Both the position numbers and the translations under genes were made by a program. DNA of 64,000 bases from a virus (lineage: Duplodnaviria > Caudoviricetes), in the IMG/VR virus record IMGVR_UViG_3300025575_000014, positions 1,393 through 65,392 of that record. One strand, written 5' to 3'. This document shows positions 6,112 through 35,159 of this stretch, one piece after another. Each line of letters starts with the position of its first letter. Positions within the stretch are counted from its first letter, which is position 1. Below the pieces are notes generated by a model. It ran no database searches. It had not been told where the DNA came from and saw nothing but the letters and a program-made list of their open reading frames with translations.

Positions 6112-6134
6112 CAATAATTTGGGTTATTTTTCAA

Positions 6135-6165
6135 AATAAAAAAAAGAAAGGTTTTACCCTTTCCC
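6135..6165 (-). terminator. Intrinsic terminator, repeat family shared with 27501 and 28557
   Basis: AAAGGG-TAAAA-CCTTT hairpin followed by a T run. Confidence 0.7.
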
Positions 6166-6339
6166 TTTCAGCTTTGCTATTATATGAGTTTGTGCATCTA
6201 ATATTATTATCATCCTTACATAGTTTGAAAGGTCAAGCCCTAGTTTAGCAGCTTGTTTTTCTCCCTGTTCTCTCATTTCTTTAGTCATCCTTATATTAAC
6301 TATTTCTTTTTTTGGTGAATCTTCTGTTTTAATTTTCAT
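6154..6339 (-). CDS. Ribbon-helix-helix (CopG/Arc-like) regulator
   Basis: EIVNIRMTKEMREQGEKQAAKLGLDLSNYVRMII fits the beta-alpha-alpha RHH pattern. Confidence 0.75.
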   Translation of the reverse strand: MKIKTEDSPKKEIVNIRMTKEMREQGEKQAAKLGLDLSNYVRMIIILDAQTHIIAKLKGKG

Positions 6340-19548: not shown

Positions 19549-20148
19549 TTATAGCTTTACATATTCAATTCCATAGACTTTGTAAGTATTTTTAAAAAAC
19601 TCCAATCCTTTTTCTTTTGCTATGTCATGGTGTAAAGTACAAAGAGATATTTTGCTTTTGTCATCTAATGTATAAATAATAGCTTCTTGTCCGCAAATGC
19701 TACACTTAGAATGTTTAAGACAATAAAACAAGTACGTTGAAATTTCAGTAGTCCTGTTAAGTGCTAGGTCTGTTAAAGGTATACTATTCATTATTACAAA
19801 CTCAATTACAAAATCTATAAAAGCTCTTGCAACCTCCAGTGTGCAATTAGATAAGCTAAAATCTTCTAATCCGCTTTCCATGCAAAAATTATATTTAAAC
19901 AACTGTTTAATGTACTCAGGAACATCTCCATTCCAATCCGCTATATCTTTAAATGTTGCGTAAAGTTTTTTCCTTTGTTCAGCATTTATTTTTCTACCAT
20001 CATCAAATGTTATTTCTCCATGTATACCCTTATTTGTAGAATATTTTAATAATTCTTCTTTAGTAATGTCTAAGCCAACCGTCAAAAATGCCTTTCCCTT
20101 AATTTCTTTTATACTTAAAACTTGTACTGGCTGGCTAAAGTTTTTCAT
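19549..20148 (-). CDS. Putative HNHc nuclease of the recombination module
   Basis: INAEQRKKLYATFKDI...FSLSNCTLEVARAFIDFVIEF...KCSICG...LCTLHH. Confidence 0.7.
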   Translation of the reverse strand: MKNFSQPVQVLSIKEIKGKAFLTVGLDITKEELLKYSTNKGIHGEITFDDGRKINAEQRKKLYATFKDIADWNGDVPEYIKQLFKYNFCMESGLEDFSLSNCTLEVARAFIDFVIEFVIMNSIPLTDLALNRTTEISTYLFYCLKHSKCSICGQEAIIYTLDDKSKISLCTLHHDIAKEKGLEFFKNTYKVYGIEYVKL

Positions 20149-20153
20149 AAGTG

Positions 20154-21305
20154 TTATTCCTCCTCGATTTTCCCTTTTGCAGTAGCTACATAATCATAGT
20201 TGTTATCTTTTAAAAATTTACTAAGTGCAACGACTTCTCCCATATTCCCTTGTATTCTCATTTCAATGAAGAATCGTTCCTCTGCTATTTCTGAAACTGT
20301 TTTTTTATCCTCTACTGATTCAGCACTTATATTGATATTTCTAACCAATTCTTTTGTTTTTGTTTCTCGCTCTAGTTTTTCAGTAGCTTTATTTTTTTCA
20401 GCTTCATCCTTTAAATACTGTGTTCTTTCAGCTTGTAACTCCTTATTCAACTTTTCCGTTTTTTCATCCTCAATAGCTTTTAATCTTAATCTTTCTTTTT
20501 CTTCCGCAGCTTCTTTTGCAATTCTTTTATTTCTTTCTTCTATCCTTACTTTTTCCGCTTCTTCAAATTTAGCTTTTTCTATTCTCTCAAGAACTAATTT
20601 TTCCGCTTTAGCTTTATTATCTGCTATAGCTTTTAACTCATTAGCCTTTGTTCTTTCTGCCCTGTCGTTTATCGTAGATAGTATTTGAGATATAGGAAAT
20701 TCTGTATTTATAAGCATTTGAAAATCCGAAATATCTAATTTGGCATCAATGTTTTTATTGCAATTTTCTATAGTATCTTTTATTATTTGTAGGTTTTCAA
20801 CTTCTTGTTGTTGTTCTTGTTGCAGAAGATAACCTCGTCTTTCAATATCCTCCTTAACCTTTTTAACGCTCATAGAAACGTTCATATATTCATCATGTAC
20901 AATCAGTTTACTACTATACTTATCATTCAACAGAAGCTCTTTAACCATGCTTTCTATGTGCGTTTGTGCCATTAATCTTTTAATCTCTCTAGCCTTATCA
21001 TCAAATACAGAAATTGCTTGTTTGATAGGGTTTTCAACTTCTACTATTAATCCAACTAATTCCTTGCATTGGCCTTCAAACCTAGTTACTGGAATAAGCA
21101 TTTCTTTCTTAATTCCTTTTCTATAAGTTTCTAAATCATTTTTCGTCTTAGAAAGTTCTTTTTGCATCGCTTTACAATCTTTTAAAGTGCTTTCAGAAAC
21201 TACTAGATTTTTATATTTTTCAGATCCAGCTATTAAAGAAGCCTTTACCTCTTCAAAATTTATTTGTACGATCGGTAATTGTTTTTCTAGTTTTATATCC
21301 AACAT
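20154..21305 (-). CDS. DUF1351-like coiled-coil protein
   Basis: LPIVQINFEEVK...YKNLVVSE...K..RKGIKKEMLIPV..FE; next to ERF. Confidence 0.7.
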   Translation of the reverse strand: MLDIKLEKQLPIVQINFEEVKASLIAGSEKYKNLVVSESTLKDCKAMQKELSKTKNDLETYRKGIKKEMLIPVTRFEGQCKELVGLIVEVENPIKQAISVFDDKAREIKRLMAQTHIESMVKELLLNDKYSSKLIVHDEYMNVSMSVKKVKEDIERRGYLLQQEQQQEVENLQIIKDTIENCNKNIDAKLDISDFQMLINTEFPISQILSTINDRAERTKANELKAIADNKAKAEKLVLERIEKAKFEEAEKVRIEERNKRIAKEAAEEKERLRLKAIEDEKTEKLNKELQAERTQYLKDEAEKNKATEKLERETKTKELVRNINISAESVEDKKTVSEIAEERFFIEMRIQGNMGEVVALSKFLKDNNYDYVATAKGKIEEE

Positions 21306-21567
21306 ATTAATTCCCCCTATTTTTCAAAACTTTGTTACATCAAAATATTTTTGAAGTGTGCCGCTATTCACCATCACTAAATATCGTGTTATTACCAGCT
21401 ACAAGAGTTATTTCACTAATAGTATTAACTAGCTTTACATTAGTCCACCCTTTGCCATCGTTGAATACAATAACTTTATGATAATCTTCCTTTTCTATTC
21501 TTTTTAACAAATCATATACAGTCATGTTTATACCTCCTTATTGCGTACTGTTATCATATTATGCCAT

Positions 21568-22407
21568 CTATATTATGCCTTCCAGCGGATTAGCTACCTT
21601 ATCAGGACGCAGCCCCAATTTCTCCATTGCTTCACTCCAAACCTCAAAAGTCATTTGTTCAAACTTTGTATTGTTATAAGCGGCACATATTATCGCTTGC
21701 TTAACGCCTTTTTTATCTGCCAACACTTTGATTGCTTCAATTTTGTTCTTATCAATCAATTTTTCTTCGCTTTTCTCATTACCCATTTTCTTAAAATTTT
21801 CATAAGCACTTTTTTTATCTTCTTGTTTGATGAATTTAACTTCTTTTGCATTGTACTTTTTGCACAATGAAGCTTCGTTATATCCCTTGCTCGCTGCCAT
21901 ATCAACTAACATTTTAGTAGTTACATTATTAGAATCAAAATTGTGTTTATCATTCTTCGTTCCTGTAGGTTCCTTATTATCTGCATCATCTTCATCAGTT
22001 GGTAATCCAAATGTTTTTAACAAAAAGTACCTCTCGTTGTACGAAAGTGCAGTCCCCACTGCCTTACTTATATCATCCGTTTGTTGCCCTAGTGCTAGCC
22101 ATTCAGTAACTAACATTTCTGTAGGTGTTTCTGCATTTATCCATGTATAAGTTAGTTTGAAAGTCACTATAAAATCCATACTTTCTTTTCCTTTAGCGGT
22201 TATATAATTATGCTTTTCCCAATGCACCGTAGAATAATCAACACTAGGTATAAGCAATAATCCCATTTCATCCATCTTAACTTTGATTTTACTTAGTACT
22301 TGGCTACCACTTACATAATCAAAACCATAACTTTTAGTATCTTTTGAAAATCCTGTTATAGACTTTCTAACCTCAACTATTTTCTGAAATAAATTTAATT
22401 TTTCCAT
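21568..22407 (-). CDS. ERF-family ssDNA annealing protein
   Basis: LNLFQKIVEVRK...FDYVSGSQVLSKIK...KAVGTALSYNERYFLLKTFGLPTDEDDAD. Confidence 0.82.
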   Translation of the reverse strand: MEKLNLFQKIVEVRKSITGFSKDTKSYGFDYVSGSQVLSKIKVKMDEMGLLLIPSVDYSTVHWEKHNYITAKGKESMDFIVTFKLTYTWINAETPTEMLVTEWLALGQQTDDISKAVGTALSYNERYFLLKTFGLPTDEDDADNKEPTGTKNDKHNFDSNNVTTKMLVDMAASKGYNEASLCKKYNAKEVKFIKQEDKKSAYENFKKMGNEKSEEKLIDKNKIEAIKVLADKKGVKQAIICAAYNNTKFEQMTFEVWSEAMEKLGLRPDKVANPLEGII

Positions 22408-22426
22408 ATTGTCCCCCTATTTATTT

Positions 22427-23044
22427 TTAAACACATTTTTCTAAAAACTCATATTTCTTTTTCAACGACACAGGCAATTCTCTAAGAAGTTTACTCACCC
22501 AACTTTGACTTAAATTTAATTTTTCTGCTATTTTCATTTGTGAAGATTCATCAATAAAAAACATTTTTAATATCACTTTATGGCTAGGTTTAAGTTCGTT
22601 AATAAGTAGATTAACTTCTTTTATTTCTTCGTGCTTTAAAACTAATTCCTCACACTGATCTGGACTTGAAATCAAATTCATTAATGTCAATGTATTTCCA
22701 CAACCATCGGTGGCAAACGGTTCATCAAAACTTACTTCGCACATGTTATATTTCTTTTTATTTGATTCCTTTCTTATTTGCATTAAAAAGTCATTTGTTA
22801 CAACCCTGCCTAGCAATGTGGTGAACAGATAACCTTTTTCAATATCATAAGCGTTAAAAGCTTTCGCCAATGCCATGCTGCCTATTTGGTTTAAATCCTC
22901 AATATCTAAATCCGAATTTGTAAATTCAAGTGCTTTTTTATAAATTAATCTTTCGAACTGTTCAAATGTTTCGCCGCAAGTCATTTCTCTTATTTCAATT
23001 CCTTTTTCTTTTGTTTTTAACTTTATCGCTTTTCGTATCTCCAC
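22427..23044 (-). CDS. Sigma-70-family factor resembling sporulation SigE/SigK
   Basis: EDLNQIGSMALAKAFNAYDIEKG, VSFDEPFATDGCGNTLTLMNLI (cf. SigE VSFDEPLNIDWDGNEL), region 4 SQMKIAEKLNLSQSWVSKL. Confidence 0.82.
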   Translation of the reverse strand: MEIRKAIKLKTKEKGIEIREMTCGETFEQFERLIYKKALEFTNSDLDIEDLNQIGSMALAKAFNAYDIEKGYLFTTLLGRVVTNDFLMQIRKESNKKKYNMCEVSFDEPFATDGCGNTLTLMNLISSPDQCEELVLKHEEIKEVNLLINELKPSHKVILKMFFIDESSQMKIAEKLNLSQSWVSKLLRELPVSLKKKYEFLEKCV

Positions 23045-23070
23045 GCTTACCTCCCTCGATTCCCATAGTT

Positions 23071-23247
23071 TTAATTTTGTTTTAAGTTATAATCAAGACA
23101 ACTTTCTCCATAAGCACATTGTTGTTCTTCTGCATCCCCGCAATCTCCACTCCAATGATGTTTATTACAAAATGGTACATATCCAGCCCCAACATCTCTT
23201 TCGTCCGATACAACACTATGAGTACATATATCGCATTTGTTTTCCAT
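23071..23247 (-). CDS. 58-aa Cys/His-rich protein
   Basis: Manual ORF MENKCDICTH...FCNKHHW..DC...CAYGESCLDY with AAGGGGGAG RBS. Confidence 0.6.
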   Translation of the reverse strand: MENKCDICTHSVVSDERDVGAGYVPFCNKHHWSGDCGDAEEQQCAYGESCLDYNLKQN

Positions 23248-23258
23248 AACTCCCCCTT

Positions 23259-23459
23259 TTATAAAATATCAATTTTAATTTTTAAAAGTTTAATAAGTAT
23301 TTGAATCTGTTTTAATCTAGGATTCCGTTTACCATTTTCTATTTGGCAATAACAAGATTGCGTTACTCCTAAGCGTTCTGCAACTTCTGCTTGTGACATG
23401 TCAGCTTTAACTCTAGCGATTTTTAATTCTTGTCTTTTCACTACATCATTTCCTTTCAT
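23259..23459 (-). CDS. Cro-like XRE HTH regulator
   Basis: LKIARVKADMSQAEVAERLGVTQSCYCQIENGKRNP; divergent from the repressor. Confidence 0.88.
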   Translation of the reverse strand: MKGNDVVKRQELKIARVKADMSQAEVAERLGVTQSCYCQIENGKRNPRLKQIQILIKLLKIKIDIL

Positions 23460-23485
23460 GCTAAATTATTCCTTCTTATTGTTAT

Positions 23486-23514
23486 ATTGTATTACATATC
23501 GTTATAATTTGCAA
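23486..23514 (-). promoter_or_regulatory. Early lytic (PR-like) promoter TTGCAA-N17-TACAAT
   Basis: Hexamers at 23509-23514 and 23486-23491, just upstream of cro. Confidence 0.7.
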
Positions 23515-23727
23515 CCCTTTATTTTCCTATTTTCCACATCTTGTTGAATTATTTTTTCACACTATTTCTTTTAGAAATTATTTTTGTCTTTTTGGTATTC
23601 TTTTTGCTATTTTCGTTTATAATGTTAGTATGTAGTTGAAAAAATCTTATGTTAATCTACTAATAAATGTATATATTGTTTTATATGTTGTTTTTTAAAT
23701 TTTAAAAATACATGGAGGTGTTTATAT

Positions 23728-24156
23728 ATGGAGGATAAAATTATGAATAGTGACGAAGAGTTGAGAGAAGTATTTACCCAACGACTAAAGCGATTGAGGA
23801 TGGATAAGGATTTAACCTTAGAGGAACTTGCCAAAATATTGAAAACTAAATACGATATAGGAGTAACTTACGGATCATTGGGTAATTATGAGCGGAATAC
23901 GCGTATGCCGAGTTTGTTCATTCTATCTAAAATTGCAGAGTTTTTCGATGTAACGACAGATTACCTACTGGGAAAGGTGGATATTAAAAATGCCAAAATA
24001 ATGCAGACAACCATATTCGATAAATACAATAAACAACAGAACGTTAAACTCGTTGTTAACAAAGATTCAGAGCTTGCTAATATGTCCATAAATGAAATAA
24101 GGGAACTGGTAATCAAATTACGTAGTTTAGGAATTGATTTCGACAATATCGTTTAA
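23728..24156 (+). CDS. CI-like XRE repressor
   Basis: RLKRLRMDKDLTLEELA...LGNYERNTRMPSLFILSKIAEFFDVTTDYLLG; divergent from cro. Confidence 0.85.
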   Translation: MEDKIMNSDEELREVFTQRLKRLRMDKDLTLEELAKILKTKYDIGVTYGSLGNYERNTRMPSLFILSKIAEFFDVTTDYLLGKVDIKNAKIMQTTIFDKYNKQQNVKLVVNKDSELANMSINEIRELVIKLRSLGIDFDNIV

Positions 24157-24265
24157 TAGAAATGTAAAAATAGGTCAATATTTAGTAGTATATAGTGTTC
24201 ATTAATTTGTTCTTTCTGTCACATTCAATGATATAATAAAGGAAGAACATTAGGAGGCTATGCTT

Positions 24266-24406
24266 ATGACAAATTTACTAAAAGGTCTTTTTTACATACA
24301 AACTAGTGACGGTAAAAAAATTACTAAAGAACAAATTCTAGACAAGCTTAAGAAACCAAAATCAATTATTCTTACAGTAGCTTTACTGATAGCGTTCATA
24401 CACTAA
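24266..24406 (+). CDS. 46-aa peptide with C-terminal TM helix
   Basis: MTNLLKGLFYIQTSDGKKITKEQILDKLKKPKSIILTVALLIAFIH; AGGAGG RBS, TG-a-TATAAT at 24232, hairpin terminator shared with the convergent gene. Confidence 0.65.
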   Translation: MTNLLKGLFYIQTSDGKKITKEQILDKLKKPKSIILTVALLIAFIH

Positions 24407-24461
24407 AGCAGATAAAAAACACCTACATTAATTTGCAGATGTTTTTTTATTTTTCATATGA

Positions 24462-24938
24462 TTATTTATCGTCCATGTTGTCTATGTATAGCTTACATAT
24501 TATATTGACTATTTCATTTCTACTGTACCCGCCTTTACTCTTCGCTAATTTATCCAGTTTATCAGCCAACGCAATATCCATGACAATACCGAAAGCTTTA
24601 GTCTTAACTCTAGCCTTAGCTTTAATAGGTATGTCTAATTGTAGCTTATCGCTTAGCTTATGGTCTAGTTTTTCTTTTGGTCTATGGCTTAGTTTTTTCT
24701 TCTTGTCAACAATTGGAGTATTGTCTTTTTTATCCTCTTGTGGTATGTTTGTTTTGACGTACTGCTTAGATATAGAATCGTATATATAGCTAGCCTTTTT
24801 GAAATTTCTTGCTATACTAGTGCGACCTATGCCTAAATAGTGCGCCGCTTTTGTTAATGTATCACCTTTTGCAAGTAGATCATTAACATATTCTAATTGC
24901 TTTACTATCTCCATTTCCTCAAACTCCGATTTGTTCAT
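24462..24938 (-). CDS. HTH plus C-terminal RHH DNA-binding protein (plasmid-type)
   Basis: N-terminal TLTKAAHYLGIGRTSI HTH; C-terminal KAFGIVMDIALADKLDKLAKSKGGYSRNEIVNIIC RHH. Confidence 0.7.
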   Translation of the reverse strand: MNKSEFEEMEIVKQLEYVNDLLAKGDTLTKAAHYLGIGRTSIARNFKKASYIYDSISKQYVKTNIPQEDKKDNTPIVDKKKKLSHRPKEKLDHKLSDKLQLDIPIKAKARVKTKAFGIVMDIALADKLDKLAKSKGGYSRNEIVNIICKLYIDNMDDK

Positions 24939-25032
24939 TGCAATCTCACCTCTTAAATACTTTACTATATCTTAACTAAAATTGAAATAGAAAAAGGATA
25001 CAGTATCTTACAACTATATCCATAAACTTTAT

Positions 25033-25335
25033 CTATTCATTTTTACTGTCAGCAATCGCACCTTTGATGTTTTCCCAAAAATACATTAAATTAACTACGG
25101 GTATTACTGCAAGTGTCGCTATTACTATATAAAGACTAAGAGGTGCGTTATCAAACGCCCAATTAAATAAATTATTAAATCTTTCTAACCATTCATCTGG
25201 CAGAGTATCCATTTGTTCTTGTATATGTCTCATTGCTTTAAAAGGATCGTTTCCTTTATTTAACTTCATTCTAAGTATTGCAGACATTACACCCGCTAAT
25301 ACTGTTATCCAATATATCTGTAATATAATATTCAT
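25033..25335 (-). CDS. Two-TM membrane protein
   Basis: Two hydrophobic helices; RBS present. Confidence 0.65.
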   Translation of the reverse strand: MNIILQIYWITVLAGVMSAILRMKLNKGNDPFKAMRHIQEQMDTLPDEWLERFNNLFNWAFDNAPLSLYIVIATLAVIPVVNLMYFWENIKGAIADSKNE

Positions 25336-25564
25336 TTGTTACCCCCAAATTAATCCTCATTACTTTGTTCAGTTTTTATTTCTTCGTTTATAAAAAATAA
25401 TGCAGTTCTTAATCCTTCGATGGAATTATTATCTTCTATTAATTCACATTGTATTTCGGTTTCTATAATTTCCTTTGCCCTCTTTAATCCTTCAATCATT
25501 GTTTTTTCTCCTTTCAACCTCTCGATTTAAAATCGACTACTTTAGAATATTTTTGAAATATGAC

Positions 25565-25786
25565 TTAAATTCCTACTTTTGTACCATCACTATAATGATA
25601 TACAATGTCGTTAAAAAACAATTCACTGTTAAATTTAAGTTCAGCCCCTCTTGTATTTATCCTCCTATGATTATAGGTATATCTACTCATTTCAATAAAG
25701 AGTAATCTTTTAGGAGTATCATTTATTGTTTTTAATTCATCTTTATCCTCTACGATATTTCCATGTGCATTTATTACTACTCTCAT
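25565..25786 (-). CDS. Hypothetical protein
   Basis: 73-aa ORF with GGAGGAG RBS. Confidence 0.6.
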   Translation of the reverse strand: MRVVINAHGNIVEDKDELKTINDTPKRLLFIEMSRYTYNHRRINTRGAELKFNSELFFNDIVYHYSDGTKVGI

Positions 25787-25812
25787 AATCTCCTCCAGCT
25801 TGATTCGTATTA

Positions 25813-26002
25813 TTATTTTTTCAAGTTCATAATTTGACCCATCGGTTTATTAATTACATTCAAACCACCTTGAAGGCATATCCCAATACTCAAATCTAAC
25901 ATTTCTAATTGCTCTTGTTTTAATCCTACTGGATATATTGTCCCATCCTTGCAATAACATAATAACTATTCCGTCTTTTGTTCCATCGGACATGTTATTC
26001 AT
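25813..26002 (-). pseudogene. Probable small gene with a +1 frameshift near 25955
   Basis: RBS and ATG give MNNMSDGTKDGIVIM; the protein-like continuation YCKDGTIYPVGLKQEQLEMLDLSIG...LKK* is one base out of frame; span 190 = 63x3+1. Confidence 0.4.
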
Positions 26003-26019
26003 TTAATAGCCCCCTCGTT

Positions 26020-26202
26020 TCAATCTTTCTTTAAGTCCCTGACCTCTTTTATCAATGTCTCATCAAGTTCTTTCATCATCTCTATACCTTTCTCGTCGGA
26101 TAATCTTCTCAATACTCTTCCTTGCCTGAACGTTAGTTTTACACCCTTAACATAAACCATATCAATAAATTTATCAAAGAGCCTTTCTTTCTCGGCATTC
26201 AT
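26020..26202 (-). CDS. Hypothetical protein
   Basis: 60-aa ORF with RBS. Confidence 0.55.
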   Translation of the reverse strand: MNAEKERLFDKFIDMVYVKGVKLTFRQGRVLRRLSDEKGIEMMKELDETLIKEVRDLKKD

Positions 26203-26803
26203 ATAAATTCCTTCTCTCGTTTATAATAAATTTTATAATTCTTAATGTATATTTAAAATTTGTTGTATCTCCGTTATTTTTAGTAAAATTACCGCCTTTT
26301 CTTTTGTTGAAATATTCTATGCAAAGGTTATAAGCATACGTATTTACGTTTGTTGTTTTTATAGTATCGAGTTTGCTTTTAAAAGTTGATAGTATAGACT
26401 TATATATGTCTATAGAGTACATTGAGTTAACTTCTAATAGCCATTGTAATATATCATCATCTAATTTTACCTCATATCTTCCGTTTTTCCTGTAACAACT
26501 TGTAGGCCCTATGAAATGATTATAATTAAGTTTTTCCGTACCCCTTTCTGTAAATCTATAATAAATATCACCAGTAAAAAATTCTGTAATGCTATATCTA
26601 TTATCCATATAATATTTTTTATTGTTTAATAGCATAAAATAATTATCTATACTATTTATTAACACTTCCTTTTTATGTTTTTTTAAAAGTGGATTAATAA
26701 ATACCTTTATTAAATTTATATTTTCTTTGTATTTTGTCTTAGATGTTTTCTCCCAGTGTTCAAGTACCAAGCTTTCATTCTTCGTTAATTTATACTGTTT
26801 CAA
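26174..26803 (-). CDS. Protein resembling the C-terminal domain of phage/plasmid replication initiators
   Basis: LVLEHWEK...LINSIDNYFMLLNNKKYY...YSITEFF resembles the IFxHWN...AIDNYA...WTLxEF domain; TTG start after GAGGGGG. Confidence 0.4.
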   Translation of the reverse strand: MKQYKLTKNESLVLEHWEKTSKTKYKENINLIKVFINPLLKKHKKEVLINSIDNYFMLLNNKKYYMDNRYSITEFFTGDIYYRFTERGTEKLNYNHFIGPTSCYRKNGRYEVKLDDDILQWLLEVNSMYSIDIYKSILSTFKSKLDTIKTTNVNTYAYNLCIEYFNKRKGGNFTKNNGDTTNFKYTLRIIKFIINERRNLYECRERKAL

Positions 26804-26809
26804 TTTTAT

Positions 26810-27455
26810 CCCCCTCTATTTATTTTATTGTATATAAGTTTTTGAACTTCTAAAATGTTTCGGGACTAAAGGAATGAAGATAGAACTCCCTCCCTCCTAA
26901 AAATTAGATTTTACTCTAATCTTCAAGAAAGTGTTAATGTTTCGTACACTTTAAGTACTCGACTTCACACCGTTATTTCTAACCAACCATTCAAAAGTAT
27001 TTCTACCTCAACTCACTCATTTAGCGCCATACATTAAGTTTTTAGTTGCTCCCTTTGCATTTCTGCAACACTTCTATATCCATATTAATGAGATTTTTCG
27101 TCCTCTCCCATACACCCAGCCATGTAGTTCACCGAGGACGTATTTCCATCTAACGAATAACAAATACAGTGCTACGCTCCTAATTGGCATTAGTATTTCC
27201 TACTGTATGAGTTTTTTAGTTTAACGAGGCATTCTTCCTTCAACGGCCTCCAATCATTTGTAAAATACAAAAACCCTTCTACAAGTGATTAACTTATAAA
27301 AGGGTTGTATTGGAGTATTAAAAGTGCTATAATTAGCTCAATAATATTCTTCTAAACGTCTTTCAAAGTGTTCTGATCACTTGATTGATTTAGCTCTCAT
27401 GGTTGGTCTTGTAAGCCAATATGAGAGTGTTGAAGATTTTTTAATTTATTCTATT
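26810..27455 (-). ncRNA. Long structured leader/ncRNA (~650 nt) with internal attenuator
   Basis: Promoter TTGTAA-N17-TATACT (27462-27490); 12-bp-stem terminator plus T5 at 27269-27304; ~440 nt downstream with no convincing ORF (longest found 38 codons, no RBS), GC-richer, several hairpins. Confidence 0.55.
27340..27442 (+). ncRNA. Putative antisense RNA to the attenuator leader
   Basis: TTGTAT-N17-(TG)c-TATAAT at 27305-27333; hairpin CTCTCAT..GTTGG/CCAAT..ATGAGAG at 27394-27427, T run at 27437-27442. Confidence 0.6.
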
Positions 27456-27500
27456 AATGGTAGTATACTACGAAATGTTGAATTTTACAATAACTTTCCT

Positions 27501-27531
27501 AATAAAAAAGAGAAAGGTTTTACCCTCTCTC
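27501..27531 (-). terminator. Intrinsic terminator (repeat family)
   Basis: GAGAGAGG-gtaaaa-CCTTTCTC-TTTTTT; 30/31 identical to 28557-28587. Confidence 0.8.
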
Positions 27532-27536
27532 AATAA

Positions 27537-28289
27537 TTAACTTTTAGTTATTTTTCTTACACCTTCAGGTGTTAATAATGTCGGCATCCTTTCGCCTAAC
27601 TTTTTGTAGTCGATCTCCTCTTTTAAATTGAAACTTTCTAGCGTCAATCTAGTTCTCAAAGTGTCTATGGAAATATCGTATTCTTCAGCTATTTCTCTCA
27701 TAGTTTTAAACCCTTTTAAATTTATGGTATTGCCAAGTTGTTTTATTATCGCATTTTTTATACAGTTTTCTGCATATAATCTTGAAGAAAATTTCTCGAT
27801 ATTTTTATCATTTCCCCAAAACTTTATAACATCTAAATACCATCTTTCATCTTCAAATATAAAACTAACCACTTTTTCATCTTTAAGATAGTGTATTTCT
27901 CCGTTTTCATCTATTATTATTGCACCATCATTTCTTCTAGTTTGATTTTCTAAACAAATTTCATCCCATTTTTTTAAAATTTTATCGCTATTATTTGAAA
28001 TTAATTCTCCCCAGTTCGGTATTTCTTGGTTTTTACTCTTTAAGTTTTCTAGTTTATAGACTAATTCATCTATGTTTATAATATCATCCTCATAATCGCA
28101 TATGGTATTAAAGCCATTTTCCCACCCTCTATCATGACGTGATGCGTAATTAGTAAGTATTGCAGTGTGTATTTTTTCAATTATCAGATCAAATACGTCA
28201 CTGACGGTTCCGCTTTTATCCAATATATTGTTTTGCTGATTTGCATACTTCGATAATTCTACTAATTGTTTCAATGTCTCTTTATTCAT
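27537..28289 (-). CDS. Hypothetical protein with C-terminal HTH
   Basis: TMREIAEEYDISIDTLRTRL HTH at the C-terminus. Confidence 0.7.
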   Translation of the reverse strand: MNKETLKQLVELSKYANQQNNILDKSGTVSDVFDLIIEKIHTAILTNYASRHDRGWENGFNTICDYEDDIINIDELVYKLENLKSKNQEIPNWGELISNNSDKILKKWDEICLENQTRRNDGAIIIDENGEIHYLKDEKVVSFIFEDERWYLDVIKFWGNDKNIEKFSSRLYAENCIKNAIIKQLGNTINLKGFKTMREIAEEYDISIDTLRTRLTLESFNLKEEIDYKKLGERMPTLLTPEGVRKITKS

Positions 28290-28291
28290 TT

Positions 28292-28489
28292 TTACACACC
28301 CCTTTTATTGTTTTTCATATACTTTAAAAATTCATAATTTCCGTTTGTTGATTTAAGGTTTTTTCTCCACGTACACCTAGCTTCTCTAAAAGTCATACAT
28401 TTAGGTATGTCGGTATCGCGTTGAACTATCTTATTTAATAGTTTTTGATATACATTCATTGATATTTGCCCCCTCTTTATTTTAAACAT
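28292..28489 (-). CDS. Hypothetical protein (probable start 28459)
   Basis: AGAGGGG RBS before MNVYQK; first gene after the consensus promoter. Confidence 0.55.
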   Translation of the reverse strand: MFKIKRGQISMNVYQKLLNKIVQRDTDIPKCMTFREARCTWRKNLKSTNGNYEFLKYMKNNKRGV

Positions 28490-28515
28490 TATTTAACTAA
28501 CTCTCTATACTTCAT

Positions 28516-28544
28516 ATTATACACACACGTGTGTGTATTGTCAA
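28516..28544 (-). promoter_or_regulatory. Perfect SigA promoter TTGACA-N17-TATAAT containing a 20-bp palindrome
   Basis: Palindrome ATACACACACGTGTGTGTAT at 28519-28538 fills the spacer. Confidence 0.9.
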
Positions 28545-28556
28545 TCATTTCTAATA

Positions 28557-28587
28557 AATAAAAAAGAGAAAGGTTTTATCCTCTCTC
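28557..28587 (-). terminator. Intrinsic terminator (repeat family)
   Basis: Near-identical to 27501-27531. Confidence 0.8.
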
Positions 28588-28676
28588 CATCCCAGCACAA
28601 CTCTCAATAGATTGATTAACCTCACTTGAACTTATTTTCAATTCCTGCATTGTTTCCAGAACTCTTTCTCTTGTAT

Positions 28677-28886
28677 TCATCTTTCTAACTCATTTTCATA
28701 TTGATTCGGAGCAAATTTCAAAGATATTATTTCAATAGGTTCGTTGATGTTTTCTTTTATTTTTATATTCCAAAATTCTTGTTGGTCATTTCTATATATA
28801 TCCGCAACTTTACGAGTTAATAAGAGTTCCTCTTTAAGAATTTTATTTTCATTGATTAAAGTAGTAAGTTTATTTTTGAATATCAT
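28677..28886 (-). CDS. Hypothetical protein
   Basis: 69-aa ORF with AAGGAG RBS. Confidence 0.6.
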   Translation of the reverse strand: MIFKNKLTTLINENKILKEELLLTRKVADIYRNDQQEFWNIKIKENINEPIEIISLKFAPNQYENELER

Positions 28887-28901
28887 TCTCCAACTCCTTT
28901 T

Positions 28902-29090
28902 TTATTCTTTTTCTCTTTCATTCTCATATTCATGCTCGCAATTTCTTGATCCGTAATAATTGCAGGAATCTTTTATACTTTCAACCATGATTTCATGTCG
29001 TGCATTTTCCCATTCTTTAGCTTCTTCTGTTTTACATTCATTTAACATAATAGAATGATATACGTTTTCTAGTGCTGCAGCTGCATTCAT
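28902..29090 (-). CDS. Hypothetical acidic protein
   Basis: 62-aa ORF with AAGGAG RBS. Confidence 0.6.
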   Translation of the reverse strand: MNAAAALENVYHSIMLNECKTEEAKEWENARHEIMVESIKDSCNYYGSRNCEHEYENEREKE

Positions 29091-29111
29091 TAATATTCTC
29101 CTTATTTATTG

Positions 29112-29273
29112 TTATAAATCTATATCAACCACTGGAAAATTTATTTTATATCTCATTTCTTCTTTGAAATTTTCAAACTGGTTATATCTTTTGAGAAATT
29201 CTTTTTCTGTGATTATTCCTCTTTGTTCCTGCGCTATAAAATGACCAATTATTTGATTAAACATTTCAGACAT
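29112..29273 (-). CDS. 53-aa hypothetical protein
   Basis: Manual ORF MSEMFNQIIGHFIAQEQRG...VDIDL. Confidence 0.45.
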   Translation of the reverse strand: MSEMFNQIIGHFIAQEQRGIITEKEFLKRYNQFENFKEEMRYKINFPVVDIDL

Positions 29274-29464
29274 TTTTTTATTCATTTTTCTAACTCCTTA
29301 TCATTGCTACCAATACTGAACTCTATTATGTGTTTATATTCCATATCTAAACTAAATTTAATTTCTTTTAGCCTTCCATCAGCATCAACCGAAAAGTACT
29401 TTTCATTTTTACCATTTTCTACGCAAATTCCATTTTTATAATCATATAGGTTATATTGTTAATT

Positions 29465-30433
29465 TCATTCTCTTTCATTCTCCTTGTTACTAATATGCTC
29501 GCATTCTTTAATTGCTTGGTCTATGAGATATTGAGGAACTTTATATTTTTGACTTAACATGTTTAATGCTTGCTTGTAAATATATTTACTTTCTTTCAGG
29601 TTATCAATACATTTAATTAGTTCCTTGGCTTCTGTAATGGCTTTGTCCTTTTCTAAACTATTTTTGTTACTATAATTTTTATACACTTGTAACGTCCTCT
29701 CAATTGCTTTAATTTTGATTTCTTGGAGTTCGGAATTTCTAGCTTTTGCTAGCATTTGTTTATGGTCATTCTCATTTAACTTCTTTTCTATTGCTGCATA
29801 CCATGCTTTTACTTCCATGTGCTTGCGCTTGCTATATTTAACACCTCTATTAAGGCATTTAAAGCGTTGTTTCATGTGGTTGCTATAATTAGTCTGCCAC
29901 TCTCTCATTTTCTCTACACCATCAAAATATCGCGTATTAGATAATATGCTTTCATTTTTCTTGTTTTTAAATTTAGGCACTATGAGAGCGTGAATATGCC
30001 AAGTTTTTTCATCTTTGTGTAAAGTTGCATAGACACAATTACTCCCAAAGTTATCTTTTAGGAATTTAGCATTATCGTTTTTCCATAATTCTAAATCCGT
30101 TTTTGATAATCCTTTAAAAAAGTCAGGTGATGCGGACATTAATAACGATCTTGCTATTATTGCATTTTTTCTTAATTTAATATCTGTTATATAGTTTTTG
30201 ACATTATTGATTACGTTTTTATCGCCTATTAATATTTCGTTTTTTATATTAGTATTTGCATTTGCAACTTCGTTTTCTCGTTCCATATGATTAACAAATC
30301 CATTTAATGAATTGACGGTTTTGTATTTGTCAGCTATTCTAAATATTGCATAATAAAAATTTGAGTTTTTACTTATAGTTATGTCTTTCAATTTTTCTGT
30401 TTTAACTGGTGTTCTAAAATCTTCCCAACTCAT
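29465..30433 (-). CDS. mobV: MOBV (Mob/Pre) relaxase
   Basis: YAIFRI..K, NHMER (catalytic His region), RKNAIIARSLLMSASPDFF, ATLHKDEKTWHIHALIVP (HxDE..H.H), WQTNY...LNRG; coiled-coil C-terminus. Confidence 0.92.
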   Translation of the reverse strand: MSWEDFRTPVKTEKLKDITISKNSNFYYAIFRIADKYKTVNSLNGFVNHMERENEVANANTNIKNEILIGDKNVINNVKNYITDIKLRKNAIIARSLLMSASPDFFKGLSKTDLELWKNDNAKFLKDNFGSNCVYATLHKDEKTWHIHALIVPKFKNKKNESILSNTRYFDGVEKMREWQTNYSNHMKQRFKCLNRGVKYSKRKHMEVKAWYAAIEKKLNENDHKQMLAKARNSELQEIKIKAIERTLQVYKNYSNKNSLEKDKAITEAKELIKCIDNLKESKYIYKQALNMLSQKYKVPQYLIDQAIKECEHISNKENERE

Positions 30434-30466
30434 TTATTTGCTCCTTGTTTATTGTTTTGCAAAATG

Positions 30467-30482
30467 CCGTACTGAGTTACGG
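30467..30482. promoter_or_regulatory. Candidate oriT hairpin
   Basis: CCGTA-CTGAGT-TACGG inverted repeat ~35 bp upstream of mobV; MOBV oriTs typically are hairpins at the mob promoter, and the GAG|TTAC loop resembles the pMV158 GTG|TTAT nick context. Confidence 0.35.
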
Positions 30483-30550
30483 TTTATATTCCTATCTAAT
30501 TACTAGGTTTTACCATATGCAACCTTCAGAATCTGTTTTTTATGTTACCA

Positions 30551-31915
30551 TTAATTACTAACTTTTTGTACATTGTTTGCATATTTTGGTTGATTATAGT
30601 AAATGTTTTGATTGTCTAAAAATGGCAATTTATTATGAGCAATTATTAATACCATGTCATCGTTTATACGTCTGATTTCACCTGGTGTAAATAATTTCTT
30701 AGTAGTAGTTCCTGTTGTTACTTTGTCACCGTTATGTGTCTCTGTTTTCACTTCTCTATCATCACATAAATTTGAAATATAACTCATTGTTTTATAATCA
30801 GAAATAGAAGGTAGTATAACTTTAGATTTAAGATTATTCAGAATTGTGGTTGCGTTATTCTCGCCATATATTTCATAGAGTTTTGATATATTTTGTAAGC
30901 ATACTAAAAATCCAACTTCTTCTGATCTACATACTGAAACCGTTTCTTCAAAATTTGATATTTTACCAATATTCTGAAATTCATCGAGCATGAATAATAT
31001 CGGTAATCCTTTATTGTGCATAACCTTGTCAATTAATTGAGTATAGAATACCGATAAGAACGGTGATAGGTATTTACTCTTTGACGTATCATATTTGATG
31101 TACAATGCAATAGGTCTAGTTCTTAAATCGAGCGGCTTAAAATCGCTATTAGAGGTATTGTTGATTATTTTGTGATCTGTGAATAACTGTAGACTTGTTA
31201 ATAACGTTGACATTATGCTTGACATTGTTTTTGGACTTCCAGCACTAGCCATAAATATTTTAAATTGTATAGAAATATCTTCATTTTGATTATTACCTAA
31301 TATTTCTGTTAATTCCTCTAGTGGTGTATTGATTATAAGTTTTAAAGCTTGCGATATATTTTTACTGTATAATAAAGCACTTGTGAATAAAGGAATACTC
31401 ATGTTTTCCCATTCATTTCCGCTTTTCCCTGAACCACCATTAACAATTAAATTGCTTGCTAATTCTCTAACTTCTGTAAATCCTTCGCAGTTTTCTAAAA
31501 GATTGTATTTTGCATGTTTGCCTAAAGGCTCAAACAATATCGGTTCTCTGCCTATACTTCTTTGATACTCACTCGTTAAATCCCACAACTCACCTTTAGG
31601 ATCACCTATTATAAGGCTACTTTTAGGCAAATCATCGCTTAATAGATTAGGCAGAGGAATACTTGTTGTCTTCCCTTCTCCTGTTGGTGCTATAACACAG
31701 ACACCTTCTAATGTCTTCTTGAAGGTCAATTGAAACTCTTTTGATAATACTAGTCCGTCTGTTCCAGTAAGTTTTCCTAAATCCTTTTTAGTACCTAATT
31801 TTGAGGTTGCTAGTTTTTGCTTATTTTTTCTAAATAATAAAACTATATCTATAACCGGGATGCACATTGCTAACCATAATAATTTTTGCATCATTACGAA
31901 CTCTTCCACCGACAA
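30551..31915 (-). CDS. virD4: VirD4/TraG-like type IV coupling protein
   Basis: One N-terminal TM, Walker A APTGEGKT, GDPKGE, Walker B FMLDEFQNIG, LQNISKLYEIYG, ILNN...LFTPGEI. Confidence 0.92.
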   Translation of the reverse strand: MSVEEFVMMQKLLWLAMCIPVIDIVLLFRKNKQKLATSKLGTKKDLGKLTGTDGLVLSKEFQLTFKKTLEGVCVIAPTGEGKTTSIPLPNLLSDDLPKSSLIIGDPKGELWDLTSEYQRSIGREPILFEPLGKHAKYNLLENCEGFTEVRELASNLIVNGGSGKSGNEWENMSIPLFTSALLYSKNISQALKLIINTPLEELTEILGNNQNEDISIQFKIFMASAGSPKTMSSIMSTLLTSLQLFTDHKIINNTSNSDFKPLDLRTRPIALYIKYDTSKSKYLSPFLSVFYTQLIDKVMHNKGLPILFMLDEFQNIGKISNFEETVSVCRSEEVGFLVCLQNISKLYEIYGENNATTILNNLKSKVILPSISDYKTMSYISNLCDDREVKTETHNGDKVTTGTTTKKLFTPGEIRRINDDMVLIIAHNKLPFLDNQNIYYNQPKYANNVQKVSN

Positions 31916-31976
31916 TTACTCCTTGTATATTGATTGTAGATATGGGGTATACTTAAATTTAAAAGGAAGTGATATT

Positions 31977-32054
31977 ATGATATTATTATTAAGTGTTGGT
32001 GAAGTTTTGAGTTGGTGCGCTGCTGCTTATTGCTTGTATCGAGGTTTGTTTTAA
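31977..32054 (+). CDS. 25-aa hydrophobic peptide
   Basis: MILLLSVGEVLSWCAAAYCLYRGLF after AAAGGAAGTG RBS; stop overlaps the stop of the convergent RHH gene. Confidence 0.45.
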   Translation: MILLLSVGEVLSWCAAAYCLYRGLF

Positions 32055-32218
32055 ATTTCTTCAAGTCCGTCTTTTGATGATTTATTAAGACTTATATATT
32101 TCAGATAAAATTCACATGCTTCTTTTATAAATGCTGATTTTTCCTCCATGGCGTATATGGCTGCATAGATTTTTTGGTCTTTAGTTGTGTTCTTAAAACT
32201 TACAACTATTTTTGACAT
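32051..32218 (-). CDS. 55-aa RHH/ParR-like DNA-binding protein
   Basis: MSKIVVSFKNTTKDQKIYAAIYAMEEKSAFIKEACEFY; AAGAAGGA RBS. Confidence 0.7.
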   Translation of the reverse strand: MSKIVVSFKNTTKDQKIYAAIYAMEEKSAFIKEACEFYLKYISLNKSSKDGLEEI

Positions 32219-32436
32219 ATTTACGTCCTTCTTTGTATTGTTGTATTAATAATATATACAAAGTTTAATCAATTGGTTACAATGAATTACTCCATAAATA
32301 AGAAAAAGTCTAGCAAATGCTAAACTTTTAAATAAACTTTAATTGTTGGTTTTTATCAGAATAGCCTAAAAATTTTAATATTATTCTTTCTCGCTTTTTA
32401 CCGTAATATTCACTTTTAGTACTACTTTGTAGCTAA

Positions 32437-32610
32437 TTAAAAATCTAAATCAAAATCACTTTCCTGTTTTTTTTCATTTTTCATAACTTTAACCGGCATT
32501 TCTTTTTTTATTAACCCTTTAATATAAATGCTAGGACTTAACTGAGATAAGAGAAAATTATACATGTCTTTCTCTGTTTCTTTAAACGAAATGCTAACTT
32601 TTAAAGCCAA
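32437..32610 (-). CDS. ParR-like partition adaptor (57 aa)
   Basis: MALKVSISFKETEKDMYNFLLSQLSPSIYIKGLIKKEM...DFDLDF: RHH N-terminus and acidic tail; TTG start overlaps the parM stop. Confidence 0.75.
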   Translation of the reverse strand: MALKVSISFKETEKDMYNFLLSQLSPSIYIKGLIKKEMPVKVMKNEKKQESDFDLDF

Positions 32611-33458
32611 ATTGATTCACCTCTTTTTTTAAAACCTCTGCTATTGGCAAATATTGAATCTTCTATTAATTGAACATTAGGTATTCTATTTTTAAACGCT
32701 TTATGAAGCATTATAGCTCCACCACCAACTAACATAATGTCTAAGGTCTTGATACTATACCCAACTTGTAACTCATTCACAAGCCCTTCTACATAGCTTT
32801 TAAATATATCTAATGCAAAACCAATATTTCTATCTTCTCCATATATTTTTAATCCATTTTTAATTAATCTTGGTGCATCATCAGCTTTTAGATCAAGTGC
32901 ATATTTGCTATTAACCATTTTTATAAAATCTGAATATAAATTTAAGGTCCCAATAGGCAAACTATATGGTTTTTTAACTTTTTTATTTTCTAACAATGCG
33001 ATATCAGTTGTTCTACCTCCGATATCTACAATAACACCGTTAAATTCTTTGTTTATTAAAGCAGCAATGCCCTCTGGATATACTTCTATATCTTCAATTA
33101 TTAGCTTTCTTTCAATCCCATTTAAACCAATATTCTGCATCCTGTCTTTTAATAATAATTCTTTAAAAGCATTTTTATCTTCTTTGTATTGACTAAGAGG
33201 TAAACCCACACAAATCTGATTATTTATTTCATCCGTACTCATTGCTACCGCCGCAAGAAACATTTCTTTAATATATTCTTTTTTAATCTTACGGTATTCA
33301 GTATTATATGAACCTTCTTCCATATAAAAAGTACCATCCATGGTTGTTAACGCAATGGAACTGTCAAGTATATTGTCCGTCTTTGCAACTTTAGACGTAA
33401 AATTAACACCCTTTGAGGTTTTTGTTGCATAATTACCTAAATCCACACCTATTATCAT
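32601..33458 (-). CDS. parM: ParM/StbA-family actin-like partition ATPase
   Basis: Phosphate-1 GVDLGNYATK, VYPEG, phosphate-2 IVDIGGRTTD, adenosine LVGGGA, connect FANSRGF. Confidence 0.92.
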   Translation of the reverse strand: MIIGVDLGNYATKTSKGVNFTSKVAKTDNILDSSIALTTMDGTFYMEEGSYNTEYRKIKKEYIKEMFLAAVAMSTDEINNQICVGLPLSQYKEDKNAFKELLLKDRMQNIGLNGIERKLIIEDIEVYPEGIAALINKEFNGVIVDIGGRTTDIALLENKKVKKPYSLPIGTLNLYSDFIKMVNSKYALDLKADDAPRLIKNGLKIYGEDRNIGFALDIFKSYVEGLVNELQVGYSIKTLDIMLVGGGAIMLHKAFKNRIPNVQLIEDSIFANSRGFKKRGESIWL

Positions 33459-33539
33459 TAAATATATCTCCTTTTAACTACTTCTTACTATATAGTATTC
33501 CATATTGAGCAAAATGTAACCAATGTTGTTTTGCAAAAT

Positions 33540-33586
33540 AAAAAACCCATATACTTACATGAAAGGCAAGCATACAGGCTTTAAAC
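33540..33586 (-). terminator. Intrinsic terminator isolating the par operon from upstream phage genes
   Basis: 14-bp G:U-rich stem GCCTGTATGCTTGC/GTAAGTATATGGGT followed by a T run. Confidence 0.7.
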
Positions 33587-33715
33587 TATTGTGGAATTAT
33601 ATTATTTTATTACAGCAAACATTCAAGAACCTATTACATAATTTGATCTACTTATATTATACAACATATTTACAGTTATAAATTTAATTATGTCAGATTA
33701 TTTTTGAAGCACGTC

Positions 33716-33898
33716 TTATAATAGTTCTGGTGATAATTCACTTTTAAGCCAACCTACACCCTCTAACTTAACTACCCATATGTCATATACATTTTTATCT
33801 TCAATGAAAGGCTTACACTTGCTTTTAAGCATTTCTACATTGTTTGCTTCTACAATATGTGTCCTACCATTAATATAACTAATTCTTGCTTCTAACAT
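33716..33898 (-). CDS. Hypothetical protein
   Basis: 60-aa ORF with AGGAGG RBS. Confidence 0.6.
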   Translation of the reverse strand: MLEARISYINGRTHIVEANNVEMLKSKCKPFIEDKNVYDIWVVKLEGVGWLKSELSPELL

Positions 33899-33927
33899 AG
33901 CCCATTCCTCCTTAATTTTTATTCCGA

Positions 33928-34239
33928 CTATCTCATTCTCTCTTTTACTCTCATACCAATATCAGAAATTATTTTATTTAATCTCTTATTCTCTACCATA
34001 AGCACATCATAATCACGTTCAGCAGAATCAATACCTAACAAAGTATCTACTGAGACATTAAAGGTTTTGGCTATTAGCACTATTCTGTCTAAAGAAGGTT
34101 CTCTGTCACCTATCTCGATATGGCTTATCATTGATTTACTGTATTTTAATTTATTTGCTAATTCTAATATGTTCCAATTGTTCCGCTTGCGTAATTTTCT
34201 TACCATTTCCCCGAATATATTAATACGTTTCATCCCCAT
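33928..34239 (-). CDS. XRE-family HTH regulator
   Basis: FGEMVRKLRKRNNWNILELANKLKYSKSMISHIEIGDREPS...FNVSVDTLLG. Confidence 0.88.
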   Translation of the reverse strand: MGMKRINIFGEMVRKLRKRNNWNILELANKLKYSKSMISHIEIGDREPSLDRIVLIAKTFNVSVDTLLGIDSAERDYDVLMVENKRLNKIISDIGMRVKERMR

Positions 34240-34244
34240 TCTTA

Positions 34245-34436
34245 TTACATCTTTTCAATTAACCATAATCCAACTTTAATTTCTAAATTATCAATTGCTA
34301 TCGCGAAGTTTTTCAAAGTTTCTTTTTCATCACAAATTTTCTCAAACCCACTACAATAGCCACTTTCTCTATGAATTAACACTTTATTTTTCTTATCAAT
34401 TATTAATTCAGTATGGTCAAATAAACCTACTTTCAT
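34245..34436 (-). CDS. Hypothetical protein
   Basis: 63-aa ORF with AAAGGAG RBS. Confidence 0.6.
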   Translation of the reverse strand: MKVGLFDHTELIIDKKNKVLIHRESGYCSGFEKICDEKETLKNFAIAIDNLEIKVGLWLIEKM

Positions 34437-34721
34437 AGTTTTCTCCTTTCGGTTATCAAGTAATCCTCGTTACCTCCACGCTTGCATTTTAAACAATTCT
34501 CGATTATGCAACCACTAGCCATTAGTTTTATTCCTTAAGTATTTTTGCCAATTTTCGTTCATTTCATGAAATCCGTCATATATACGTTTTTCATCCGCTC
34601 TTAATCTCTTAGCATTTTCGTTATGCCATAGTATTTTCTGTTCATTCTCGTGTATTTTTTTATCTATGTCGCGCTCATTCATATAAATATAATCCTCCCC
34701 AGAATTTATTTTAATTCCAAA

Positions 34722-34847
34722 TTAATCTTCTCTATTAGCATCGTTATATCTTTCCTCGAACTCAATTTTGTCTATTGGCACAATCTCTTTTTCTTCACAT
34801 TCACGCACATACTTTTTATACAATTTTATAACTTTAACCCTTGTTAT
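34722..34847 (-). CDS. 41-aa protein with apparent ATA start
   Basis: GGGAGG-N7-ATA then TRVKVIKLYKKYVRECEEKEIVPIDKIEFEERY. Confidence 0.45.
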   Translation of the reverse strand: MTRVKVIKLYKKYVRECEEKEIVPIDKIEFEERYNDANRED

Positions 34848-34946
34848 AATATAACCTCCCTACCATATTTAAACATTATCATAATTATATTATATTCCTA
34901 ATTGTAATAAATAACAACTAAATGTTGAAATAATATTTAAAAATAT

Positions 34947-35159
34947 TTACTCTTTTATAGGAGTTTCCAATAACTCACCAACATCATTTTTTATTTCATC
35001 CAATTTTGTGCCTGCTGAAACCGCTGCCGAACCTTTTAAATGATTTAATAACCACAAAACCTCAGTTTCATCCTTGCATTTTTCAAATAAATCATCCAAA
35101 ATAACATCTAAAACAAAATGTTTAAGCCTTAGTTTTCCATTTTCACCTCTTGATAGCAC
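34947..35159 (-). CDS. Hypothetical protein
   Basis: 70-aa GTG-start ORF with AGGGGG RBS. Confidence 0.55.
   Translation of the reverse strand: MLSRGENGKLRLKHFVLDVILDDLFEKCKDETEVLWLLNHLKGSAAVSAGTKLDEIKNDVGELLETPIKE

Follow-up and report, generated by a model that had tools for sequence, protein, structure and literature searches.

Does the non-coding region at positions 27262-27490 of this phage sequence control a neighboring gene, or is it a unit in its own right? The window, which is the whole stretch of 64,000 nucleotides (nt) analyzed here, corresponds to positions 1393-65392 of the IMG/VR virus record IMGVR_UViG_3300025575_000014, whose length is 65.4 kb. Its G+C content is ~32%, and its genes are nearly all on the minus strand. 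The region lies inside a 733-nt gap (26804-27536) that is free of open reading frames (ORFs), between a 250-aa gene (27537-28289, minus strand) and a 209-aa gene. An earlier note, made from the sequence alone, had interpreted it as an antisense-RNA attenuator of the pT181/inc18 type that sets copy number by terminating a rep mRNA prematurely. Our analysis favors another answer, to which we assign a probability of roughly 0.4: that a self-contained cassette, with a promoter at one end and a terminator at the other, occupies 27262-27490, encodes a small RNA (sRNA) and an anti-sRNA, is shared horizontally, and probably serves the plasmid state of its carriers. The earlier note named the right kind of device, a pair of cis-antisense RNAs carried by a plasmid-like element, and the wrong family.

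The promoter hexamers at this locus are of a sort that AT-rich DNA supplies freely. A scan of 3 kb found 23 promoter-like sites where 16.5 were expected, and terminator-like sites numbered 4 against an expected 0.9. The hexamers of the sense promoter, at 9 of 12 consensus positions, would be unremarkable alone in such DNA. The facing antisense promoter is absent from the list of scanned promoters because its -35 element matches the consensus at just 3 of 6 positions. What raises the observation above chance is conservation in the plasmid pCF008-C. A sensitive blastn search of 72,556 plasmids produced this homologue only, at pCF008-C positions 13797-13984, which align with 27262-27450 of the window at 73% identity (E = 4e-17). 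pCF008-C is a circular 38.6-kb plasmid of the cultured strain Clostridium estertheticum CF008. It is also a complete phage genome, siphovirus-like and maintained as a plasmid, with genes for terminase, portal, capsid, tail, holin, lysin and a replisome organiser, and no feature is annotated under the match. A blastn comparison of the 64-kb window with all of pCF008-C aligns nothing but the cassette (E = 1.7e-20). At the level of translated sequence, matches between the two are few and weak, the best being a DUF4250-like protein with 39% identity over 64 aa.

The similarity extends from the -35 element of the sense promoter to just past the U-tract of the terminator, termed T2, and the flanks match at 1 of 10 and 15 of 34 positions. 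The pCF008-C sense promoter reads TTGTAA-N17-TGc-TATAAT; its hexamers are identical to those of the window at 11 of 12 positions, versus 4 of 17 in the spacer (Fisher p = 0.0005). The antisense promoter there is TTGCAA-N17(TGa)-TACAAT, in which 5 of 6 positions of the -10 element, both positions of the TG and 4 of 6 of the -35 element are kept, versus 6 of 14 in the rest of the spacer. Two hairpins, SL1 and SL2, lie between the promoters. At the base of the SL1 stem, three pairs have changed on both sides and pairing is kept. SL2 is identical at 35 of 42 positions, with one compensatory pair and a different loop. No ORF is common to the two copies on either strand: the sole ORF in the sense RNA of the window has 7 codons and is missing from pCF008-C, and a plus-strand ORF of 51 aa in the window is interrupted there by a stop. 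A covariance model (R1) scores the two copies at 201 and 194 bits and finds no others in the sequences scanned. These comparisons are good evidence, although not proof, that selection acts on both promoters, on both hairpins and on T2, and that the cassette yields non-coding RNAs, the transcripts themselves being predicted.

The earlier note had described a minus-strand promoter, a terminator with a 12-bp stem and a facing, near-consensus plus-strand promoter. All three elements lie where it had placed them; the stem is longer than reported, at 15 pairs including two G-U pairs. Conservation in pCF008-C supports the arrangement that it had drawn from them, in which a cis-encoded antisense RNA pair arises from face-to-face promoters and an intrinsic terminator lies just past the overlap. 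Coordinates are collected in Table 1.

Table 1. Features of the cassette and its surroundings in the window
Feature	Position	Strand	Remarks
Terminator T1 of the upstream 250-aa gene	27508..27531	-	Upstream bound of the cassette, outside the conserved module
Sense promoter TTGTAA-N17-TATACT	27462..27490	-	Start predicted near 27455; directly after T1
Predicted non-coding sense RNA, ~190 nt	27262..27455	-	A-rich 5' tail, SL1, SL2, linker, T2; ends inferred
Hairpin SL1	27394..27427	either RNA	Apex UUGG-YUWACAAGA-CCAA conserved, stem base variable
Hairpin SL2	27352..27393	either RNA	Directly abuts SL1; stem kept, 7-nt loop differs, 3' block AAAGACGUUURGAAG conserved
Antisense promoter TTGTAT-N17(TGc)-TATAAT, extended -10	27305..27333	+	Start predicted near 27340
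Predicted countertranscript, ~100 nt	27340..27445	+	Fully complementary to SL1 and SL2; 3' end inferred from U6 at 27436-27441
Terminator T2, 15-pair hairpin (2 G-U pairs) and U-tract	27306-27272, with tail to 27262	-	-17.4 kcal/mol; tail TTTTTGTATTTT
ORF-free spacer, ~460 nt	26804..27261	-	Separates T2 from the next gene; any ORF is shorter than 40 aa
209-aa ORF, TTG start	26174..26803	-	Orphan; N-terminal half weakly similar to the C-terminal part of DnaD/replisome organisers

The region of the sense RNA folds with a z-score of -4.95, and possible YUNR-type loop motifs can be read from the sequence of SL1. The antisense promoter begins where T2 ends, and on the sense RNA the predicted start of the countertranscript lies 34 nt ahead of T2. 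The module has no tandem or direct repeats. An Rfam cmscan of positions 20000-35000, at E values up to 1, found nothing in the cassette and one chance match to AbsR28 elsewhere.

We favor an autonomous cassette because the conserved, and presumably exchanged, unit runs exactly from promoter to terminator. The sense RNA, with SL1, SL2 and an end at T2, would pair rapidly with the countertranscript, starting at the hairpin loops, and each RNA would titrate or destabilize its partner. Polymerase transcribing the sense strand would cross the antisense promoter and interfere with it, and the antisense RNA would end before the sense promoter. The output would be how much of one RNA remains free, and that RNA would act in trans on some target. 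Because the cassette is the only DNA common to two otherwise unrelated extrachromosomal Clostridium prophages, it most likely helps to maintain the plasmid state, through incompatibility or immunity, through sensing of copy number, or through addiction. The control of copy number proposed earlier is possible as a role of the cassette. Sharing of this DNA and no other also implies strong selection on the cassette or its movement between the two prophages. The cassette, which resembles classical antisense attenuators without their switch and rep gene, would represent a new autonomous sRNA/anti-sRNA module or a new mode of terminator gating. Little is known of plasmid-state control in phage-plasmids of Gram-positive bacteria, and the copy in cultured C. 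estertheticum CF008 makes transcripts, read-through and plasmid stability directly testable.

Two known systems resemble a cassette of this sort. SdsR/RyeA of E. coli is a pair of non-coding RNAs from opposite strands that have their own promoters and 3' ends and no ORF, and one of the two is thought to check the other. SdsR/RyeA is chromosomal and enterobacterial, whereas the cassette is mobile and resides in Clostridium phage-plasmids. The prgQ/prgX region of pCF10, with its antisense RNA Anti-Q, has promoters that face each other across roughly 100-200 bp, and whether its transcript is short or long is settled at a terminator in the sense leader. That region controls conjugation genes and uses an alternative structure at the IRS1 terminator; the cassette differs in having no predicted alternative structure and in the lack of conservation of its downstream genes.

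Several observations weigh against an autonomous sRNA/anti-sRNA pair. There are only two copies, and the covariation amounts to four pairs. The 3' end of the countertranscript is the weakest part of the observation, because the U-run follows a 4-bp closing helix and not a simple hairpin. This predicted end is non-canonical: the helix (CUUC/GAAG) encloses the two hairpins, U6 follows, and the terminator scan does not flag it. The closing helix and the U-rich tail are retained in both copies. In T2, none of the 24 paired columns differs between the copies, versus 32% of the other columns of the module (P about 9e-5); in SL1, by contrast, 7 of 22 stem positions differ, with compensation. T2 is thus kept in sequence and not in structure alone, which a pair of sRNAs does not explain, and the comparison suggests that something reads the T2 sequence itself, beyond the need for a hairpin. 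Both elements have ~470 ORF-free nt after T2, an odd feature if the cassette is unrelated to what lies downstream. DnaA boxes beside the pCF008-C copy hint at a link to replication in cis. Finally, a search for a trans target found none, and short matches in replication genes are at chance level.

Those matches comprise one of 15 of 16 positions at 38095-38110 and a 10-mer, AAACGTCTTT, at 37029-37038. Both correspond to the conserved AAACGTCTTT block of the countertranscript and fall inside the genes for the primase-helicase and the replisome organiser, which would be antisense targets if the matches are real. The 10-mer match is not repeated in pCF008-C.

The DnaA boxes are two perfect copies of TTATCCACA at L005:6242-6250 and 6283-6291 in our numbering of the pCF008-C locus (14038-14046 and 14079-14087 of the record). 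They share one orientation at a spacing of 41 bp, and they precede the sense -35 element by 3 and 44 nt. They may mark an origin or permit control of the sense promoter by DnaA. No DnaA boxes occur near the copy in the window, and we rejected them as part of the module because pCF008-C alone has them.

In the pT181 and Inc18 systems, the nascent leader can adopt either of two folds that exclude each other, and the switch depends on this choice. We therefore chose as a test the pairing options that thermodynamic prediction gives the 5' arm of T2 while the 3' arm has yet to be transcribed, with the pT181 repC leader from PLSDB as the control. In the control, adding the 5' arm to the upstream transcript gains -11.3 kcal/mol, the terminator has a net advantage of only -2.7 kcal/mol, and the probability that the 5' arm is paired upstream is 0.82. 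The leader of the window gives a gain of -0.3 kcal/mol, a net advantage of -17.4 kcal/mol and a probability of 0.26, and the corresponding values for the pCF008-C leader are -0.2 kcal/mol, -19.1 kcal/mol and 0.45. In these predictions, the test detects the pT181 preemptor and none in the window or in pCF008-C. T2, whose hairpin energy in pCF008-C is -19.2 kcal/mol, is predicted to be a constitutive terminator that fires with or without the countertranscript bound.

Regulated read-through that dispenses with a classical preemptor is the most serious rival; we consider it unlikely. The sense RNA would be the leader of the spacer and of the operon headed by the 209-aa gene, or of an origin; SL1 and SL2 would carry polymerase past T2, or T2 would be leaky; and the countertranscript would mask SL1 and SL2 and so enforce termination. 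Because there is no alternative fold, the RNA would have to act on polymerase in the manner of HK022 put or conAn2 of pLS20. The likeness to these elements lies in structured RNA near a promoter on a mobile element, in this case two abutting hairpins, with a strong terminator beyond it. No alternative fold is needed by RNA elements that confer terminator resistance on polymerase, and such elements exist in mobile elements of Gram-positive bacteria. According to the conAn2 report, conAn2 alone suffices for antitermination, and the version from a Clostridium sporogenes plasmid functions in B. subtilis (PMC8191782). Read-through would explain the long ORF-free stretch that follows both copies. 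The 209-aa gene has no convincing promoter of its own, the best candidate being TTAACA-N18-TAAAAT at 26937-26908, a site of chance-level frequency. Its product is weakly DnaD-like, which gives it a replication-related look, and the DnaA boxes flank the pCF008-C copy.

However, homology stops exactly at T2, the DNA and the genes beyond it are unrelated between the two elements, and a 650-nt leader would be unusually long. The conAn2 report gives conAn2 terminal inverted repeats of 20 bp, a GC-rich tract, stem-loops and a ConAn1 gene ahead of it, and describes the system as poorly conserved (PMC8191782). Neither such inverted repeats nor a GC-rich tract nor a ConAn1 gene is evident in the cassette, and neither its sequence nor its architecture matches conAn2, in what is a comparison of features only, with a poorly conserved system. 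The sources, in the parts used, note no antisense partner for HK022 put or conAn2, unlike the cassette.

A bolder proposal is that phage-plasmids possess a portable control cassette made of RNA only. It could provide antisense-gated antitermination, in which SL1 and SL2 override T2 unless they are masked, or it could be a Rep-independent incompatibility or addiction module exchanged horizontally. We regard this proposal as quite unlikely. Either version, if true, would be a regulatory logic undescribed for temperate phages of Gram-positive bacteria.

It is very unlikely that the conserved 190 bp do not act as RNA at all, and instead either function at the level of DNA, as an operator or as a site of recombination or packaging, or are a remnant of recent transfer, the hexamers being incidental. 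Such a site would account for a T2 stem whose sequence is conserved beyond what a hairpin needs, promoter-like hexamers are abundant in AT-rich DNA, and only two copies exist. However, conservation sits in the hexamers of two separate promoters and not in their spacers, the compensated pairs of SL1 suggest that selection has acted on RNA pairing, and the boundaries coincide with the -35 element and the U-tract.

Only a slim chance attaches to an RNA-primed, Rep-independent origin of the ColE1 kind, in which the minus-strand transcript, or read-through into the region of the GGAGGGAGGGAG run, would be a pre-primer and the plus-strand RNA an inhibitor like RNA I. The sense region is long and non-coding and the antisense RNA does cover its 5' portion, a purine run is present in the downstream ORF-free stretch, DnaA boxes adjoin the pCF008-C copy, and no plasmid-type Rep was recognized among the genes examined around the cassette. 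Against this, T2 interrupts the sense transcript after ~190 nt, between the antisense target and the supposed primer. The downstream regions are unconserved and fold only moderately better than shuffles, and the copy in the window lacks nearby DnaA boxes. We know of no ColE1-type replicon described in Clostridia.

The classical attenuator of a rep mRNA, induced by antisense RNA and setting copy number as in pT181 or pIP501/pAMbeta1, is hardly tenable. Its geometry is matched here: as in pIP501 (RNAIII/RNAII) and pT181, a cis-encoded countertranscript of about 100-136 nt opposes a 5' leader in a plasmid context, the promoters are convergent, and an intrinsic terminator lies just past the target. 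In pIP501, too, sense transcription crosses the antisense promoter, and the sense promoter lies beyond the end of the antisense RNA (PMC4981023). This geometry and the plasmid-like carriers are the part of the earlier assignment to pT181/inc18 that stands; the part that fails is the switch, the rep gene and the linkage to downstream genes, none of which was found. No exclusive antiterminator is predicted. The pT181 attenuator abuts the repC start codon, whereas ~470 nt separate T2 from the next ORF in the window. The leader would be ~650 nt long, compared with 329 bp overall in pIP501 (PMC4981023). No CopR-like partner gene was identified, and there is no sequence similarity to these systems. 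The claim that the sense RNA is the leader of a rep mRNA is not supported, because the ORF-free stretch leads to a 209-aa ORF without a match to a Rep family, homology stops at T2, and the downstream gene is a different one in the sole homologue.

Toxin-antitoxin systems are rejected, type I because no ORF is common to both copies on either strand, and type III (ToxIN-like) because there are no antitoxin repeats and the downstream genes are unrelated. The type I systems par/Fst and bsrG/SR4 share with the cassette a small cis-antisense RNA pair, a mobile element and convergent transcription; the overlap in the cassette falls in the 5' and central parts of the sense RNA, and not at a toxin ribosome-binding site or 3' end.

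Downstream of T2, the pCF008-C spacer (L005:5529-5995) is as long as that of the window (about 460-470 nt) and equally free of ORFs, and the two spacers have no detectable similarity. Both fold just moderately better than shuffled sequences, with z-scores in the window of -2.6 for the minus strand and -0.9 for the plus strand. The window spacer has no Rfam match. It holds the GGAGGGAGGGAG purine run and, near 26900-26937, an AU-rich hairpin of 14 pairs. The possibility that it is a decayed Lin1244_N half of the 209-aa gene was rejected, as tblastn with the Lin1244_N protein P0003 is blank there.

Pfam, PHROG and NCBIfam give no match to the 209-aa protein; it has no relative in phage or plasmid records, and it stands alone in a search of 5.8 billion clusters. 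Among 1.8 billion representatives, the sole match joins its residues 2-94 to residues 150-242, in the C-terminal part, of P0003 (E = 4.8e-6), and the 209-aa protein lacks the N-terminal domain of the Lin1244_N type. In the Atlas structure comparisons, its similarity to DnaD/DnaB_2 models is weak (TM 0.30-0.41). The protein is not RepC/Rep_trans and not RepR/RepE. It may be a replisome-loading accessory or a stand-alone DnaD-like loader module.

In pCF008-C, the next gene after T2 is an unrelated ORF of 44 aa (L005:5394-5528, minus strand) with a strong ribosome-binding site and an N-terminal half that is partly hydrophobic. A near-consensus plus-strand promoter, TTGACA-N17-TATACT (L005:5267-5295), faces this coding sequence and would transcribe into its 3' end. 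The two form a candidate type I toxin-antitoxin pair adjoining the cassette.

Further copies were sought in collections covered by samples and exact-pattern scans, and the negative results hold for the collections searched. Megablast and blastn searches of phage and plasmid collections returned pCF008-C only. Exact and degenerate patterns for T2, SL1 and SL2 gave nothing or chance matches, for example in a Saccharibacteria coding region, in IMG/VR, in 185,579 species genomes and in a metagenome collection. Among 396 Clostridiaceae genomes, blastn of the module produced only short AT-rich matches of 20-45 nt, and model R1 found only generic terminators in 148 Clostridiaceae genomes. A search of viral or genome contigs for relatives of the 209-aa, 250-aa, MobV, coupling and DUF4250-like proteins yielded nothing.

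Both carriers of the cassette are phage-plasmids, or extrachromosomal Clostridium prophages. Near the cassette, the window encodes a ParM-like actin, a MobV (Mob_Pre) relaxase, a VirD4-type coupling protein (T4CP), a sigma factor and an Erf recombinase, and the best matches of its AbrB homologue are from uncultured Clostridia. The ParM, MobV and T4CP genes, together with the AbrB matches, are consistent with a prophage that is plasmid-like and has a host in the Clostridia. Neither tRNA nor tmRNA genes occur in the window. The DUF4250-like gene lies directly upstream of the cassette in pCF008-C (L005:6312-6884, minus strand). In the window, it is 2.3 kb downstream of the cassette (24462-24938, minus strand), in a unit bounded by terminators of its own (25021-24996 and 24447-24414).

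The T1 hairpin, GAGAGAGG..CCTTTCTC followed by a T-run, occurs in the window in three near-identical copies (89-94%), at 27501-27534, 28557-28590 and ~6129-6163, each of which closes a separate small gene cassette. The copy at 28557-28590 is followed by a promoter that matches the sigma-70 consensus perfectly (TTGACA-N17-TATAAT, 12 of 12 positions; 28516-28544, minus strand) and drives two genes, of 65 and 250 aa, that immediately precede the sRNA cassette.

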